This document shows, piece after piece, positions 2,055-13,955 of a DNA stretch of 15,215 nt. The position numbers and the translations under genes are program-made. This DNA comes from a virus (Duplodnaviria > Heunggongvirae > Uroviricota > Caudoviricetes): the IMG/VR virus record IMGVR_UViG_2627853678_000004. One strand, 5' to 3'. The notes beneath the pieces were generated by a model. That model did no database searches. It had not been told where the DNA came from and saw only the letters and a list, made by a program, of their open reading frames with translations. Numbering within the stretch: the first letter of the stretch is position 1; each line of letters opens with the position of its first letter.

Positions 2055-2879
2055 CTATTTTTTATCCAGCTTCTTGGCGGCAGATTCTAATTGTTTGATG
2101 CTTTTTTCCGGTACGGGCAGATTCTCTGGCATTGTCCCGCCTAGCTCCTGGATTGTTTGCCTAACTTTCCGGCCGACCTCGAAGTGAGTTTCATTAGCTT
2201 TTTGCTTCGATTTAACATTATCTCTGCGGAGCTTTTCTTCTGCCTGAGTCGCTCGGAACAGGTTGGCTGCCAATTCGGTAGAACCCATGTGATCGAGTAT
2301 CTTTTGGCTCTTTTTAAGACCTTTTCGCTGATGGATAGCCTTTTGGTCTAACCCGCCATAAAGCCCCTTGTATCCGTGATTCTGGAAGATTGCAAAGTCC
2401 AATGTTGTTTCAACACCAGCTTGCTGTGCTGCCTCAACAAGTTGCTTGTTGTGTTCCTTTAACTCGTTTCGGAGAAAAAGGCGCTTTTGATCCTCGCGGA
2501 GTCGCTTGAATGTTTCATCGTCAGCTAGTTCTTGCCGTCTGGTCTGTATTGCAAAATATGTTTGCCCAGCAGCAATAACTGGCTTGCTAGGATCGCCGTT
2601 CTGCACAACTAGATAGCAGGCATATCTGGACAAATGAACATCTTCCAACTCTCGTTGGGCACCAGACCCTAGAACAACCATTTTGGTGGTATCAACGAAA
2701 TGGTCTGAAACCTCTTGGTTGCTGGTTTCACACGCCTGAGCTGCTCGTGATAGAACGTTTTGAAAGTTTCGCCAATCTCGATAATCCAGTAGTGGTGCCA
2801 AATCTCTTGCTGACCAATATTCCTGCCCTTCGCTTCCATATTGTCGTAAGTCTTCAAATGGTTGATGGTGCTCGTTCAT
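2055..2879 (-). CDS. DinD-like paralog (274 aa), probably element-borne
   Basis: Full-length ORF starting MNEHHQPFEDLRQYG..., roughly 85-90% amino-acid identity to the adjacent dinD by eye but clearly diverged at nucleotide level. Same GGAGTG-type Shine-Dalgarno. No CTGT-N8-ACAG box is visible in its upstream region 2880-3013. Confidence 0.75.
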   Translation of the reverse strand: MNEHHQPFEDLRQYGSEGQEYWSARDLAPLLDYRDWRNFQNVLSRAAQACETSNQEVSDHFVDTTKMVVLGSGAQRELEDVHLSRYACYLVVQNGDPSKPVIAAGQTYFAIQTRRQELADDETFKRLREDQKRLFLRNELKEHNKQLVEAAQQAGVETTLDFAIFQNHGYKGLYGGLDQKAIHQRKGLKKSQKILDHMGSTELAANLFRATQAEEKLRRDNVKSKQKANETHFEVGRKVRQTIQELGGTMPENLPVPEKSIKQLESAAKKLDKK

Positions 2880-3991: not shown

Positions 3992-4213
3992 TTAATAAGC
4001 ATAAGTTACATGCGGAATAATCCCGTATCTACTGCGTGGCGCTGGCTTCTTCCACTGGTAGGCAGGCGCTCGCATCATCTCCCCGAACCGTTTGCGCCGG
4101 GCTGTATCAGCTTCAATAATGCGCTCCATTTCCCGAACCTCTGCCGGGGTAAGCTGGTGGCCTTCATGCTCCAGTTTAGCGGCTGTGATTGCGGCTATCT
4201 GCTGTGGTGTCAT
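3992..4213 (-). CDS. small hypothetical protein (73 aa)
   Basis: Internal ATG at 4211-4213 with AGGGG 8 nt upstream; product MTPQQIAAITAAKLEHEGHQLTPAEVREMERIIEADTARRKRF.... The longer ORF to 4369 adds only a low-complexity basic extension and runs across a strong hairpin. Confidence 0.35.
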   Translation of the reverse strand: MTPQQIAAITAAKLEHEGHQLTPAEVREMERIIEADTARRKRFGEMMRAPAYQWKKPAPRSRYGIIPHVTYAY

Positions 4214-6205: not shown

Positions 6206-6307
6206 TTTGCGAATACCTCGAATTATTAGTTTTGCTAATGAAGATTGCCCGGCACCGTCTTATTGTGGGACACCTTCGCCAGATTTTTTTGTATATAACA
6301 AAAATAG

Positions 6308-6567
6308 TGTTGTCTCTGTTGTCTTTGTTGTCTCACGGCTCTACAGGCCGCGCCACGTCTGGGTTTTGCTGAGACAACATTTGCAATTTCGTGTTGTCTC
6401 ACCCGGCATAAATGTTGTCTCACTGCCTGCCGGACTAAAAACACACGTTCGCCCTGTTGTCTCAAAATGGCTAAATGTTGTCTCAATGTTGTCTCAAAAA
6501 TTAAAATAAAATCCTTATAAATCAATGTAACTTACAAAATGAGACAACAAAGACAACAGAGACAACA
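6308..6567. repeat. iteron array and AT-rich tract: putative replication origin
   Basis: Eleven copies of TGTTGTCTC or its complement, counting two one-base variants. A perfect 27 bp inverted repeat (6308-6334 against 6541-6567) brackets the region, and an AT-rich tract lies at 6496-6540. The array sits directly 3' of the primase-helicase gene. Confidence 0.6.
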
Positions 6568-6592
6568 CTAAAACTACGTATGTGAAAAAAGA

Positions 6593-9352
6593 TTATTCTT
6601 CTGGCTGGCTGCTTTCCTCATCCATGAAGTTGAGCACATAAACGCGAATTTGCCGCCCTCCTTCCCTTACCCGCCCCTGATAACCTCGCCCGCTCGTTGG
6701 TGGTGTTAGCATTCCTGCATTCTTGAGAACTTCGGCAAACTGCCTGACATTAAAACCCCGTGCGATCTCCTGCTCAAATGTTGCCGGGAAGGTGTAGAAA
6801 ATTATCGGGTCGCCGTCGTGGTTCCCCTTCTTCCTGTACCCGGCTAAATCACGGATGGGTAAATCGCGCGGGTCATAACCCAGCGGCGCGAATCTACTCA
6901 GCCCATAGGCATTTAAAAACGCCTCCGTCTGCTCGATGATCTGCTGGTGCTCTTTGTTCCCCGTGCCGAACTCTTTCAGCCATGCGTTATAGGTGTGCTG
7001 TATCGCATCCCGGCACGTTTGAGCATCCCAGCCAGTAACCACGCCACCCAGCAGTAAAGCGGCCTCCAGAATGGCGAACCTCGCCCCTACACGGTGAACC
7101 TGTTCCCCATAGTCAGCAGGGATTAGACTTCGCCATCGGGCTTCACACTCACGAACGGCATCAATCGCCTGCTGCTGGTGGTCTGAAAGCCATCTAATCC
7201 ACTCCCGCCCGGCAGCGCCATGATGGTGCTGGTAAGCGTCTTTCAGCGCGTCGGCGTGATCTTTCCCTGTCTGGTGCTCATGAAAGCGCACCGCCTTACT
7301 CAGCGGGATATTCAGCAGTCGCACCAGTTGCCCCGCTTTTGTCTTGCGTCCTGCGGTGGCGATGAACGTTTCTAAATCCATTTCCCCGGTGCTGATTGCC
7401 ACGGTGCGCCAGCGTTTCAGATCCCGGTTGCCTCCTTCCTTTGCTCCCTGCAATTTCCCCACGCCGTTAAACAGGGCATAGGCAGACTGAGAAACGCTTA
7501 TCGGGTCTGCGCCCTGTCCGACTTCATCCAGCGGCATCAGCCCGTCATTGTGGGCGGCGGCCTCGTTTATCAGCCCCAGCGCCGTCCCATACCACGTCAG
7601 GCGCAAGGCATCAGGGTTGCCGTAAAGACTGCTCGCCACGTTCTGCGTGGTTGTTTTCCCGGCGCTCGATTGCTCATAAAAATGAATCCCGAATCCGTCA
7701 CGATCTGCCACCCCGATTAATGGCGCTGCCAGTGCTGCGGCGATGCCTGTCATCATCGCGTAGTTGCCGTATGCCAGCCGCGCAACACTGTTAAGCCAGC
7801 TTTCAGGCGTTCCTGCTACGGTATACCCGGCAGCGGCTGAACTGCGCCCGCTGAACAAAACAGGCCGCTGAGGTGTGCCGATGATTTCCCCGTCCGGCAT
7901 GATGTATGCCCCACACTGCCAGCCTGTAGCATGAGCAACGCGCCACAATTCACGCGAGCCGCTTCGCTGTAACCAGTCGGCAAGAATCGCCCGTAGGCTG
8001 TTTTTCGTTGTGACGTTGACGCCACCAGCTTTCAGGGTGCGCCAGCCTTCACGCTCGCCAATATCAGCCAGCGGGATAGCCGCTGTTGTCCGTATGCCTG
8101 CACCGAATGCCAGCCATGAGATAATAAGATACTGATCTTTGTCGTCGCGTCCCGTGCCGATAACCTCCAACGGTGAACATAACCAGCTTTCAGCGTTGAT
8201 GATCTCCCCGCTTTCCTTGTCCACCTTCGGCGTTACCCAGAAAACGCCATCTTTTCGGCTCTCAATGTGGGGTTTTAGTGGGTCTTTCTCTGGATGGTCA
8301 GTTTTACCGCCCTCAATGGCCTGCAATCGTGGTTTAACGGCTTCCCCTTGAATCTGGTACATCGAGTCGTTAAACGCAGCCGTAGCGACTTCCAGCCCGT
8401 TTTGCTGGTGGTGGTCGTTCCAGTCGGCTTTGTAGTCTGTCGGCGGCAGTGCCACCCATCCAGCCACGGACAAGGCGGCTTTCTCTGCGGCCTCCCTGCC
8501 TGTATTGGCTTCTCCGTTTTGGTGGTGGTCGTTGTCTGCGGCGATGATTATTTGTGCCTGTGGATACTTCCGGCGCATCACTTCGGCAACGGGTAGCAGG
8601 TTGCCCGCGTCAATTGCTGCCACTGCCAGCGCGTCCGGGCGCATCAGGTGAACTGAAAGGGCCGTCGCCAGCCCCTCGGCAATTAAAACGCTCTGCGGCG
8701 ATTCTGGCGCGTTTACGGCGTGATATGCCCCGCGCTTTGCCGAACCCGTCAGAAGTCGCTTTTCTCCATGCGGTGTAATGGTCTGCGCTGCTGCCACTGC
8801 GCCGGATTCATCCACCAGCTCCAGCAATAACGAACCATCTGGCATTAGCGGGTAATTAAACCCGGTCAGCCCTTTTGATTGCAGGTACTCAGCTTCGCCC
8901 TGTATGGCTCTCTGGCGCATTCCGGCATACAGACGGGAAAACGTAGCCCGGCGCTGCTCTGCGTCCTCTGCGGCCTTTTTCTGTCGCTCCTGCTCATGCC
9001 GCTGGCGGTCTGCGGCTAACTGCGTCTGTCTCTGGCTGGCAGCGTCTGGTGCTGGTTCTGCGGCCCGGTAATCAATACCCAGCACATCAGCGGCAAGGTG
9101 CGCCGCCTCCGTGGTGTCGCAGTTGTTAACCCGTTTGATTAAATCCAGCCCATCGCCCGCGCCGCACTGATTGCAGATAAAGCTACCTCGCCCGTTGTCG
9201 TCGAATCTGAAACGGTCTTTCCCACCACATGCAGGGCAGGGGGCATGACGGCGCGATGAATCAGGAACGTCGATAGACAGGCCAGCCAGCACATAAGGCC
9301 ATTTACCAGCGGCGGCGCTGGTCACTTCGCGGATAATGTCGATATTACGCAT
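6593..9352 (-). CDS. primase-helicase (zinc-ribbon, TOPRIM and P-loop domains), P4 alpha-like replication protein
   Basis: 919 aa. N-terminal CPACGG...FICNQCG zinc ribbon; TOPRIM-like segment (AEGLATA...IIAADNDHH...GEANTGREAAEKAA); C-terminal P-loop region (SSAGKTT Walker A-like, MPLDEVGQ Walker B-like). GGGAGG Shine-Dalgarno before the ATG at 9350-9352. Confidence 0.85.
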   Translation of the reverse strand: MRNIDIIREVTSAAAGKWPYVLAGLSIDVPDSSRRHAPCPACGGKDRFRFDDNGRGSFICNQCGAGDGLDLIKRVNNCDTTEAAHLAADVLGIDYRAAEPAPDAASQRQTQLAADRQRHEQERQKKAAEDAEQRRATFSRLYAGMRQRAIQGEAEYLQSKGLTGFNYPLMPDGSLLLELVDESGAVAAAQTITPHGEKRLLTGSAKRGAYHAVNAPESPQSVLIAEGLATALSVHLMRPDALAVAAIDAGNLLPVAEVMRRKYPQAQIIIAADNDHHQNGEANTGREAAEKAALSVAGWVALPPTDYKADWNDHHQQNGLEVATAAFNDSMYQIQGEAVKPRLQAIEGGKTDHPEKDPLKPHIESRKDGVFWVTPKVDKESGEIINAESWLCSPLEVIGTGRDDKDQYLIISWLAFGAGIRTTAAIPLADIGEREGWRTLKAGGVNVTTKNSLRAILADWLQRSGSRELWRVAHATGWQCGAYIMPDGEIIGTPQRPVLFSGRSSAAAGYTVAGTPESWLNSVARLAYGNYAMMTGIAAALAAPLIGVADRDGFGIHFYEQSSAGKTTTQNVASSLYGNPDALRLTWYGTALGLINEAAAHNDGLMPLDEVGQGADPISVSQSAYALFNGVGKLQGAKEGGNRDLKRWRTVAISTGEMDLETFIATAGRKTKAGQLVRLLNIPLSKAVRFHEHQTGKDHADALKDAYQHHHGAAGREWIRWLSDHQQQAIDAVRECEARWRSLIPADYGEQVHRVGARFAILEAALLLGGVVTGWDAQTCRDAIQHTYNAWLKEFGTGNKEHQQIIEQTEAFLNAYGLSRFAPLGYDPRDLPIRDLAGYRKKGNHDGDPIIFYTFPATFEQEIARGFNVRQFAEVLKNAGMLTPPTSGRGYQGRVREGGRQIRVYVLNFMDEESSQPEE

Positions 9353-9489: not shown

Positions 9490-9992
9490 GGCCTGATAAA
9501 AACAATGGCGTTCGCCGTTCCCTGCTCAATGCCGTAGCGCTCAATCATTGCGCCCTCGATGTTATTCGCCATCGCCAGACGTTCCGCGAACGGGTAAACC
9601 ACAATCCCCGCCGTGCCATTGGAGTAAATCGCTACTTTTGACGTTGTGCCGTCAGCCTCCGTGACGGTGGTTGTGCCGTTTTCGCGCTTCATCTCAGAAA
9701 TGAACGTGGTAGCAATCAGCCAGCGCCACATAGTGACGTTATGCTGCGCGGTAAAGTCGAACCAGCCACGCGCCCCGCCATCAGCAACGGCAAAATGTAT
9801 GGCGTATCCGATATTTGGCGTATCGTCGTACTCTCCGGCATCAAGGCGGTTTACCGCGCTCTCGTAGCTGATAAGAGCAACCTGCTCATATCCCCCGGCA
9901 TCATTGCGGGTCATGATATTGACGCCGTGCGGTGTGGCTTCGGCGTGTAATAAGTCGGCATTTCCCGATTTAATGGTCGGTGCGTTGCTCAT
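9486..9992 (-). CDS. hypothetical protein (168 aa)
   Basis: ORF in an ATGA-overlap chain with its neighbours; non-repetitive composition. Family not recognised. Confidence 0.55.
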   Translation of the reverse strand: MSNAPTIKSGNADLLHAEATPHGVNIMTRNDAGGYEQVALISYESAVNRLDAGEYDDTPNIGYAIHFAVADGGARGWFDFTAQHNVTMWRWLIATTFISEMKRENGTTTVTEADGTTSKVAIYSNGTAGIVVYPFAERLAMANNIEGAMIERYGIEQGTANAIVFIRP

Positions 9993-10252: not shown

Positions 10253-10428
10253 GCTGCCACCTCACGAATGCGGGTAATCTGGATGTGGGAAAGGCGTTCA
10301 TTTCTGGCCTGATTTAGCGCCTCAGCTTTGGCGCTGATCGCGCTGCGGGCGTCAACGATATAAACGAACTCGACTAATTCGCCGCTCCGGGCGGTGGCGC
10401 ATCCTGCAACACGGAAGTAATTAAGCAT
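10249..10428 (-). CDS. hypothetical small protein (59 aa)
   Basis: ATG at 10426-10428 with AGGGGG 6 nt upstream (MLNYFRVAGCATARSGELVEFVYIVDARS...). It overlaps the upstream stop by 8 nt. The six-frame ORF start at 10458 lacks a Shine-Dalgarno. Confidence 0.45.
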   Translation of the reverse strand: MLNYFRVAGCATARSGELVEFVYIVDARSAISAKAEALNQARNERLSHIQITRIREVAA

Positions 10429-10612
10429 GTGCGCCCCCTGTGCGAATACGTCCGGCAAAAAAGCAAACGTGATCCCGCGCCAGAATGCGGCGGGCTTCCT
10501 GCTCAGTTTCTGCGGCGATATGGTGAATTTTGGCGGTAATTGTCGGCATGTCGCGGCGAACGGCTGCGATTAACCAGATAAATTGTGGATTTTGGGTAGG
10601 GGTAGTAGCCAT
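10421..10612 (-). CDS. small protein (63 aa), possibly Icd-like
   Basis: ATG at 10610-10612 with GAGG upstream (MATTPTQNPQFIWLIAAVRRDMPTITAKIHHIAAETEQEARRILARDHVCFFAGRIRTGGAHA). Resemblance to Icd-like small proteins of P4-type islands is from memory only. Confidence 0.4.
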   Translation of the reverse strand: MATTPTQNPQFIWLIAAVRRDMPTITAKIHHIAAETEQEARRILARDHVCFFAGRIRTGGAHA

Positions 10613-10781
10613 GATGGCAGCCTCTATACAGTGAATTTTGAATTCACCACCAAGAGACGCCAATCTCAGACTGGTGGTGAGCTGAACAAGGTTGGCGTAA
10701 CCGGCCTGTATAGACACCGGCCTTCCTTTCGGAAGCCTCATCCAGCCCACCATAATTTGGGTGCGCAGGAATTTTGCCGAC

Positions 10782-10804
10782 AAAAAAACACGCTTAGTGC
10801 GTGT
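10782..10804 (-). terminator. putative intrinsic terminator or attenuator in the leader
   Basis: On the minus-strand RNA, ACACGC-loop-GCGUGU (6 bp stem, 5 nt loop) is followed by UUUUUUU. It lies inside the long non-coding-looking region upstream of the small-ORF/primase operon. Confidence 0.35.
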
Positions 10805-11132
10805 CGGCACTATACAGGTTATCGGGACGCCAATCCCGGCACCTGATTTTGCAGGTGCGCTATAACCATAAACCGGGTTGGCGATAGTCGGCAAGCCCTT
10901 TTTTATGGACTCGCAAAACTCACCTTCGCGCGTGCGCGTACTGGTCGCAAAACTCGAAAAAAACTTAGGATTTATTAGGATTCGCAGCCCAATTCTCAGC
11001 CCAGAAAACGCCTCTAAAATGTCGTCATTTGTCGCAACGGCGCGGCGATGAATGTCAGGTTTTGACAGGTTGTAAGGGTTAACATTTGTTAACAGGCTAG
11101 CCAGATTAAAGGCTTCTTTCTGGGCGGCAGGT

Positions 11133-11315
11133 TCATTCAGTATCACGGCGCACCTCCACGAACTCCTTAACGAATCTCTCCAAAGGCTGAACACATGGCG
11201 ACTGATAGCCCTCGCGGTAAAAGGTCACTCGGTTATGCTCGACGCGCTGTACGGTCACTACAGCCCCGTGCGAATCCTTGTAACGGCTTCCCGGCATCGG
11301 ATTATGGTTACGCAT
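11133..11315 (-). CDS. hypothetical small protein (60 aa)
   Basis: ATG at 11313-11315 with GGAGG upstream (MRNHNPMPGSRYKDSHGAVVTVQRVEHNRVTFYREGY...). Overlaps the antirepressor stop by 8 nt. Confidence 0.5.
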   Translation of the reverse strand: MRNHNPMPGSRYKDSHGAVVTVQRVEHNRVTFYREGYQSPCVQPLERFVKEFVEVRRDTE

Positions 11316-12140
11316 GGTTTACCTCCAGACGTTTAGCGAGCCAGCGTTGCGACAGGCGGGTGAGTTCTCCTTTGGGCTGCTCATATTCCATGCCCATATC
11401 AATTAACGTGATATTGGTGCTTTCGAGATATGAGAGGTGCTCAAGCTGTTCTGCGTTCATATGGTCGCGAGGTTCGCCAGAATAGCCATTTATCCGCGCC
11501 CACTGCTTAGCAGTTAGCCCACCAAGAACGATACGAGAAATCATATTGCTCTCGTTTGTGTAGTGGTGTTGCTGCGTCGTTTTACCCATCTCGGCACGGG
11601 CCATATTCAGCGCATCGCACATCGGCTTAAAGTTGTTTGCGGCACTGATACGGGCTTTTAGCTGGCGACGATAGCGGGCGGCGATTTCAGGCACGCTACG
11701 CTGTAATTCTTCCTCGCACTGGATGAAATAACGGCGGATAGCGCGGCCCTGTTCGGTGCGTTCGATCATTGCCAGTTCTTTCGCCATTCCGACACTTAAC
11801 AGATAGTCTTTGCCGGGTCTGCCAGAGTGCTTAATCTTGCTGTAAGCCGCGCCATTCGGGCTTTTCCCCAAATTTGGGGAAATAGTTTTATGGACTGAGT
11901 AATCGTGCCCAATGGTGAAGTCATATTCAGAGATGCGATCAGTGATCCATGTAGAGAAGTCTTTTCCCACGCCCAACGCTTTGTGTAACGCTTTTGCGCT
12001 AACAATATTGGTTTCACGCCCACCGATATGACCAGGAATAACCGGGACAATTGCGGCAAATTCATTACCGTTAATTGTGCCTGATAGGCGTTCAGATGAG
12101 GGGCGGCCTCAGAAATTAATCTGCTTTTTTCGATGTTCAT
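11308..12140 (-). CDS. phage antirepressor (AntA/KilAC-type); 5' end is in a different frame from the conserved body, possible pseudogene
   Basis: Conserved body in one frame (open 11308-12108): ...IVPVIPGHIGGRETNIVSAKALHKALGVGKDFSTWITDRISEYDF...DYLLSVGMAKELAMIERTEQGRAIRRYFIQCEE.... That frame has no ATG, GTG or TTG start with a Shine-Dalgarno before the TTG at 11976. The only good start (GGAG plus ATG at 12138-12140) is in another frame that stops at 11796. Confidence 0.55.
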
Positions 12141-13840: not shown

Positions 13841-13955
13841 CGCGTCACCTTTCACGCTGTGCCTTAAAGAGTGATTGAGCCAGGCGGTAAGGCTTCCCGC
13901 TTTTCGCCCCGTCGGGCTAGGCTCAATCTGTCCTCTGATTCTTTACATATCTTGG

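Follow-up and report, generated by a model that had tools for sequence, protein, structure and literature searches.

The closest described relatives of the locus considered here, positions 10,613 to 11,132 of a 15,215-nt stretch of DNA (IMG/VR virus record IMGVR_UViG_2627853678_000004, termed the window), are the immunity regions of P4, of P1 and P7 and of Gifsy-1, together with the Bro zones of Gram-negative phage-inducible chromosomal islands (PICIs). In P4, according to a summary (PMC10111431) that cites Forti et al. 1999, the CI RNA is encoded within eta, which also contains a constitutive promoter; Kil is a truncated product made on read-through, and translation of full-length eta, coupled to the alpA homologue, occurs only on transcripts from a late promoter upstream and prevents termination. 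The P4 mechanism as stated here largely follows that summary. A P4 timm fragment spans 8365-8209 (PMC3177188). In the P1/P7 immI region (c4 - icd - ant1/2) the controlled step is the translation of icd. The isrK RNA of Gifsy-1 binds Hfq and activates its own read-through mRNA in trans. The Gifsy-1 region is arranged isrK - orf45 (STnc1160) - anrP (PMC4825925), and the Bro zones of Gram-negative PICIs and of HE-PICIs carry both C4 and isrK hits (PMC10111431). Comparison with these systems indicates that the locus very probably serves lysogeny maintenance as the immunity region of an integrated Escherichia coli satellite that is P4-like and PICI-like, and that it is homologous to the P4 PLE-seqA-cI-seqC-kil/eta region and related to P1 c4-icd. 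The region belongs to a well-known type of element with a mechanism already worked out in P4, P1 and Gifsy-1; nothing reported here alters the understanding of that mechanism, and the practical value of the result lies in annotation.

An Rfam scan of the window, with matches judged against the curated gathering scores, places three families above those scores on the minus strand within 10871-10612, namely isrK, C4 and the c4-a1b1 targets (Table 1). The preliminary description, made from the letters alone, had likened the stretch to the P4 CI-RNA region as an immunity-RNA or attenuator region and had proposed a covariance-model search, and the scan bears out the comparison as one of homology. 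The P4 genome (NC_001609) has the same families in the same order, with isrK at 8692..8615 (the seqA region) and C4 at 8507..8420 (the CI RNA), the P4 a1b1 match falling just below the gathering score. The isrK match in the window has the family architecture of two 5' hairpins followed by a terminator hairpin and U-run, and this terminator is the minus-strand hairpin with U7 that had been noticed previously. The C4 match has a long closing stem and two hairpins, with an ACCACCA 3' motif visible after the closing stem. In P1 and P4 the C4 RNA matures from a longer precursor through RNase P.

Several repeats of the locus belong to the recognition elements of these RNAs. The three TATACAG copies that had been listed, at 10625-10631 (+), 10706-10712 (-) and 10811-10817 (+), correspond to loop a' of C4 and to the targets a1 and a2, both complementary to it; the whole window holds 6 copies against 0.94 expected, 0/200 shuffles reach 6, and 3/6 lie within 193 nt here. 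Loop a' pairs 9/9 with both a1 and a2, and b' fits b1 and b2 at 9/10 positions. The inverted repeat TCACCACCA/TGGTGGTGA is real and 100% complementary, although its arms lie at 10644-10652 and 10672-10680 and not within 10640-10675 as first given. It forms the stem of the hairpin presenting b2, and because one arm doubles as the 3' strand of the C4 closing stem the two pairings are mutually exclusive. The icd/kil Shine-Dalgarno sequence shares its first two bases with the a2 target. The 281-nt whole folds at z -5.5, pairing a1b1 with a'b' in cis, a pairing like that of the experimentally shown "structure A" of Gifsy-1 isrK (PMC4825925). The RNA features are real and not the product of chance.

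Viral contigs were scanned for the isrK core with an exact pattern, giving 120 loci; after removal of duplicates about 95-100 remain, the number varying with the stretch used for comparison. They carry 41 different C4 loop-2 sequences, and in most of these loop types the reverse complement of the loop occurs exactly in both its own upstream and its own downstream flank. Cognate loops and flanks match over a median of 8 and 9 nt compared with 4-5 nt for loops and flanks of different elements. The three sites a', a1 and a2 thus vary together, which demonstrates immunity-specific RNA-RNA recognition. The C4 stems themselves carry compensatory double changes at 15/24 base pairs in an alignment of 29 loop types that includes the window. 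The 41 loop types with their matching targets provide a simple typing scheme, and reading such loci as RNA switches reveals satellites and prophages of common immunity specificity. The isrK-C4 module is recognisable in 2632/5426 complete E. coli genomes, which is about half.

The likeness to P4 extends to one antisense target set upstream and one downstream of the C4 RNA, a long frame ending in an Icd/Kil protein of 63-65 amino acids, a C-rich stretch at the timm position (in P4 C/G is 1.7-1.9 over 8408-8279, overlapping the start of the timm fragment), a Zn-ribbon/Toprim primase downstream and an AlpA-type gene upstream. The recognition sequences differ, with b being UUGGCG/CGCCAA in the window and GUGAGAA/UUCUCAC in P4, and a being CUGUAUAG in the window and UUCACAGG in P4. 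Further differences are that a 144-aa open reading frame (ORF), AntA/AntB and DUF4222 lie between alpA and the eta-like frame in the window, whereas P4 orf88 abuts eta, and that the C-terminal part of the window primase is DUF927 and not the helicase part of P4 alpha. The P1/P7 region shares a C4 family RNA with a'/b' and the a1b1 and a2b2 targets, and P1-like phages show DNA matches over icd and the RNA module. The cargo of P1 is an antirepressor downstream of icd, whereas the window has its antirepressor-family gene upstream and a replication operon as cargo; the long open frame is also missing from the phage-type loci sampled (53/95). With the PICI and HE-PICI Bro zones the window shares the character of an integrated satellite with int, alpA, Bro-network genes, primase and single-stranded DNA-binding protein (SSB), and immunity RNAs inside an eta-like gene; the features of the window island to set beside these zones are its yicC-dinD site, AntA, DUF4222 and PerC.

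The 257-codon frame with a GTG start recorded in the preliminary description is present at 10421..11194 (-), spans isrK and C4 and terminates as Icd/Kil. In the PGAP annotation it is a single 241-aa "Icd-like protein" (WP_016244013.1). The likely start, GTG 11146, precedes the DUF4222 stop codon (11135..11133) by 9 nt, an arrangement compatible with translational coupling, and both the Shine-Dalgarno sequence and the start are conserved in relatives, which have GGAGGT followed by ATG at the position aligned to GTG 11146. A 214-codon frame of P4 (8812..8168) likewise spans seqA and CI and ends as the 65-aa Kil, and BLASTP aligns it with the window frame from the C4 region to the end with an E value of 4e-12. 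On this alignment the 257-codon frame is assigned as an eta/kil homologue.

Loci were first sorted into open-frame and closed-frame classes among those found with the one exact isrK pattern, a sample biased to b1 = UUGGC types, and two checks independent of that selection were made, one on the primase-linked subset and one on the E. coli island L123. For the first, elements were chosen by the presence of a P4-alpha-like or DUF927 primase downstream, and the frame is open in 23/23 such viral loci; a detectable primase or kil lies downstream in 0/53 closed-frame loci, 28/53 of which extend no more than 5 kb past the motif. With the window and P4 included the set comprises 25 elements, which form 8 clusters at 85% identity and have a median pairwise identity of 76%. 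The eta-type frame has 0 stops over the 246-nt RNA region in 25/25 elements, compared with averages of 2.24 and 2.88 in the other two frames. In island L123, which the isrK pattern did not find, the same upstream part as in the window is followed by a different isrK/C4 module, and the frame, of 270 codons, is free of stops as far as the end of Kil. This brings the primase-linked elements with an uninterrupted frame over the RNA region to 26/26.

The frame is thus conserved as open, and the codon-periodicity and conservation check that had been proposed alongside it gives a divided answer, with a third-position excess in the Kil part only. There the pairwise differences amount to 0.19/0.16/0.48 for codon positions 1/2/3, and the differing codons number 426 synonymous and 360 non-synonymous. 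In the RNA part the values are 0.29/0.28/0.28 with 71 synonymous against 706 non-synonymous differences, and in the N-terminal part, compared among close relatives, 0.13/0.14/0.12 with 33 against 138. The P4 subgroup shows the same pattern. As far as substitutions indicate, only the Kil part of the long frame evolves in the manner of a protein. A flat codon-position pattern outside Kil combined with an open frame argues that the frame is conserved as translatable and not as a polypeptide, and the rest of it is probably kept open for the passage of ribosomes, as in P4. A match to Pfam Phage_ASH (45 bits) covers residues 110-202 of the 257-residue frame, about 10867-10589, and so takes in the a2/b2 targets and the opening codons of Icd as well as isrK and C4; the RNA genes provide the best explanation for its conservation.

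These data bear on two other readings of the frame. The first regards the 241-257-aa frame as coding for a long Icd/Ash protein that folds and functions, and treats the matches to RNA families as incidental. The PGAP protein call, the Phage_ASH match and the conserved openness are what it would account for, but it leaves the missing third-position excess outside Kil, the compensatory base-pair changes in C4, the loop/target co-variation over 41 types and an intrinsic terminator in mid-frame without a place; it is extremely improbable and was rejected on the codon-position and co-variation evidence. Conservation of the frame does not in turn refute the RNA reading, because the RNA genes of P4-type regions lie inside a translatable frame (PMC10111431). 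The second holds that descent or chance accounts for the openness of a frame without a role, that the RNAs and the 63-aa Icd/Kil alone are functional, and that the 241-aa PGAP protein and the Phage_ASH match are artefacts. The flat pattern and non-synonymous excess outside Kil suit this reading, as does the extent of the Phage_ASH match; it has difficulty with the lack of stops across all 8 clusters, with an openness that survives swaps of the module and changes of length (257, 270 and 214 codons), with the conserved Shine-Dalgarno sequence and start, and with the reported role of P4 eta translation in preventing termination (PMC10111431), and it is considered improbable. Maintenance of the frame as a translatable track is preferred to both.

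Whether the eta-type frame in P4- and PICI-like satellites generally serves as a ribosome track without amino acid constraint, giving translation-gated anti-termination over the immunity RNAs, is evenly balanced on present evidence. Support for the ribosome track comes from L011 and eight related loci (L023, L028, L038, L040, L041, L089, L107 and L121), in which kil occupies the +2 frame with respect to the eta-type frame and the latter nonetheless remains open through all of kil and for 172-202 nt beyond; the same alternative frame of kil has 0-3 stops in other elements. Were this general reading true, Phage_ASH, the "ash family protein" and the 241-aa "Icd-like protein" would be largely conceptual translations of RNA genes. 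In five further loci (L029, L046, L053, L088 and L117) the frame spanning isrK and C4 continues into a longer protein (…QITRDGFAFLAMGFTGK…), Rha-like by eye and without a profile search, so that the long frame over the RNA module is not confined to genes ending in Kil.

From the RNAs, their two target sets, the overlap of a2 with the icd Shine-Dalgarno sequence, the open frame (conserved, as is its start) and the primase operon downstream, a mechanism can be proposed by homology with P4, P1 and Gifsy-1. Transcription would start near 10858 from a constitutive promoter within the frame (about 10894-10865), and most transcripts would end at the hairpin and U7 to give a 76-nt RNA, with read-through transcripts being processed to a C4 RNA of ~88 nt. 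Pairing of C4 with a2/b2 (and a1/b1) would block icd translation, Rho would terminate the untranslated C-rich RNA (10656-10500) before the replication genes, and the island would remain quiescent. On induction, transcripts arriving from upstream (the alpA-antA-DUF4222 operon) would be translated from GTG 11146 through the RNA region, and ribosomes on the eta-like frame would prevent both C4 pairing and Rho action and allow the replication operon to be expressed.

Several points weigh against this scheme or against a close identity with P4. Rho-dependent termination is not predictable from sequence. A sigma-70 scan of 10300-11500 returns no minus-strand promoter at the default threshold, and the candidate promoter fits 8/12 consensus positions. 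None of sid, psu, delta and epsilon is annotated in the identical RefSeq island, the left-hand ORFs being without a profile search, and by this difference the island is not a canonical P4. The TGT-N12-ACA site of P2 Ogr and P4 Delta, the motif of Ogr/Delta-type late promoters, has 0 matches across the whole window against 2.7 expected by chance, indicating that the inducible promoter upstream belongs to a type other than P4 PLL. Finally, the short RNA homologous to that of the window acts in Gifsy-1 as a translation activator rather than a passive target (PMC4825925).

This last point introduces a further reading, a positive switch of the Gifsy-1 IsrK type, in which the short RNA 10858-10783 would act in trans on read-through transcripts, displace the cis a1b1:a'b' helix and make AUG 10753 or 10741 available as an internal start in the icd frame, mainly activating icd and the downstream genes. 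Gifsy-1 has in common with the window an isrK family RNA with a leaky terminator, a C4-like RNA downstream, and a cis helix between isrK and that downstream RNA. The strength of the isrK match (75.8 bits) speaks for such a switch, as do the positions of the AUGs at +106 and +118 from the isrK 5' end, compared with +107 and +119 for Gifsy-1 orf45, and the predicted cis pairing of mid-isrK with the C4 region resembling structure A. AUG 10753 has no preceding Shine-Dalgarno sequence, however, and belongs to the conserved 5' stem of C4 (AUGG in the Rfam consensus), so that its conservation needs no coding explanation; the downstream cargo is the replication operon, as in P4, and not an antirepressor, as in Gifsy-1. 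Gifsy-1 orf45 is moreover a separate 45-codon frame coupled to the antirepressor, whereas the window frame starts far upstream of isrK and continues into icd. The positive switch is a tentative possibility, rated below the P4-type scheme, with which it can coexist.

Table 1. Positions of the immunity-region features in the window and the basis on which each was placed.
Feature	Position	Strand	Basis or remarks
eta/kil-like nested frame	10421..11146	-	241 codons from GTG 11146; stop-to-stop frame reaches 11194
Likely start of eta-like frame	11144..11157	-	GGAGG 11157..11153, 6-nt spacer, GTG 11146
Probable internal constitutive promoter (P4 PLE analogue)	10865..10904	-	Conserved block
c4-a1b1 targets (RF03163)	10871..10819	-	48.4 bits, gathering score 46.7
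seqA/isrK-type RNA including a1 and b1 target sites	10783..10871	-	Rfam matches
isrK (RF01394), seqA-type RNA	10858..10783	-	75.8 bits, gathering score 50; fold z -3.7
b1 target (GAUUGGCGUC)	10826..10835	-	Loop of second isrK hairpin; complementary to b' 10698..10689
a1 target (CCUGUAUAG)	10818..10810	-	Inside isrK; 9/9 complementary to C4 loop
Intrinsic terminator of short isrK-type RNA	10782..10805	-	7-bp stem and U7; hairpin 10805..10787, U-run 10788..10782
C4/CI-type antisense RNA (RF01695)	10757..10670	-	72.4 bits, gathering score 45; full length 1-87; fold z -5.1
a' recognition loop of C4 (UCUAUACAGG)	10714..10705	-	Repeat/complement analysis
b' recognition segment of C4 (ACGCCAACCU)	10698..10689	-	Unpaired in Rfam consensus
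seqC-type downstream targets b2 and a2	10623..10665	-	Repeat/complement analysis
b2 target (GAUUGGCGUC)	10665..10656	-	Exact repeat of b1
a2 target (CUGUAUAGA)	10631..10623	-	Complement of a'
Candidate Rho loading/termination zone, C-rich and G-poor	10500..10656	-	C/G up to 2.45; P4 timm position
icd/kil Shine-Dalgarno GAGG (10624..10621) and AUG (10612..10610)	10610..10624	-	Sequence reading
Icd/Kil-like gene, 63 aa	10421..10612	-	NCBIfam phage_ICD_like (NF033153), 73.1 bits, cut-off 25

The structured RNA occupies about 260 nt (10871-10612), and the description of the whole as a structured leader of about 0.5 kb holds for that part and not for the remainder. The stretch 10868-11132 has no Rfam match to a structured RNA, the fold of 10868-11000 is no better than that of shuffles (z -0.6), and that of 11000-11132, which lies upstream of the likely promoter, is marginal (z -2.9). 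The ~260 nt farther upstream (11132-10872) form the 5' part of the long frame and are not a leader RNA of the immunity transcript. The putative promoter comprises an A6 tract (10904..10899), a -35 element TTGCCG (10894..10889), an 18-nt spacer and a -10 element TATGGT (10870..10865), with a start point near G 10858, the first base of isrK. This block of A-tract, -35 and -10 is conserved in ten relatives, and it is this conservation that suggests a promoter here. The homopolymer runs recorded previously, A7 at 10782-10788 and T6 at 10899-10904, are present and correspond to the isrK terminator tail and to the A-tract just upstream of the -35 element, respectively; a second A7 lies at 10957-10963. 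A module junction lies at ~10895, at the -35 of the putative promoter, as the E. coli island NZ_CP050173 is 98.8% identical to the window over 10895-11140 and has a different isrK/C4 module downstream.

The tandem GTTAAC palindromes are found at 11078-11083 and 11088-11093, although they do not survive as a conserved operator, relatives retaining one copy and the second, particular to the lineage of the window, arising from a 3-nt difference. Other repeats occur in the 5' part of the frame. Short direct repeats at 10965-11003 and 10911-10955 (+) lie inside a lineage-specific insertion and consist of ATTCGCAGCCCA/ATTCTCAGCCCA in tandem, two copies of TTAGGATT spaced 10 nt apart and two copies of TCGCAAAACTC spaced 34 nt apart; protein binding is a possible role for these repeats. 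A direct repeat ACCTGTCA-AA-ACCTGTCA is conserved in the 5' part of the frame in L023, L026, L038, L040, L063, L105 and L107 and may be an operator or another DNA site; at the aligned position, ~11052-11071 (-), the window carries ACCTGTCAAAACCTGACA.

The window is an E. coli chromosomal island, located in RefSeq between yicC and dinD. Positions 10400-11350 are at least 99% identical in 26 complete genomes, and 116 genomes match. The minus-strand order is integrase, a 312-aa ORF, an AlpA-type helix-turn-helix protein, a 144-aa ORF, AntA/AntB and DUF4222, followed by the "Icd-like" protein, three unnamed ORFs, a Toprim/DUF927 primase, SSB and PerC, which agrees with the placement originally proposed between an antirepressor module and a replication operon. 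The genes from icd to the primase are on the same strand and closely packed, as predicted if the immunity region controls the downstream replication (primase) operon. The primase is 36% identical to P4 alpha over 338 aa, the N-terminal Zn-ribbon/Toprim part alone being common to both.

RefSeq has no RNA gene at this locus; two small RNA genes are hidden within the 241-aa "Icd-like protein", along with an intrinsic terminator and what is probably a promoter. In other genomes this stretch goes under the names "ash family protein", "Rha family regulator" or "Bro-N", and in L123 (1210-1773) it is an "ash family protein" (pseudogene).

Outside the immunity region the Rfam scan places an int-alpA RNA (RF02996) at 13861-13927 (-), between the integrase gene and the 312-aa ORF, with 64.9 bits against a gathering score of 35.8. 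A match to MIR2655 at 6287-6590 with 29 bits against a gathering score of 122 was dismissed as chance, and a scan for tRNA and tmRNA found none. The window is identical to the island in NZ_AP022482 except for single-base deletions at four places (~4032, ~6297, ~9498 and ~12080), three of them in short runs of the same base, and a 9-bp insertion near 1930 (1926-1934). The deletions shift the frame of the AntA/AntB gene (near 12080), of a 208-aa ORF (near 9498) and of a short annotated ORF (near 4032). These differences are either sequencing errors or early gene decay, and none lies within the immunity region. Two adjacent dinD genes are found at 880-1716 and 2055-2879 (-), encoding proteins that are 85% identical. 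One of them is chromosomal and the other appears to be at the far end of the island, an arrangement that suggests either integration at dinD with a replacement copy or the carriage of dinD as cargo.

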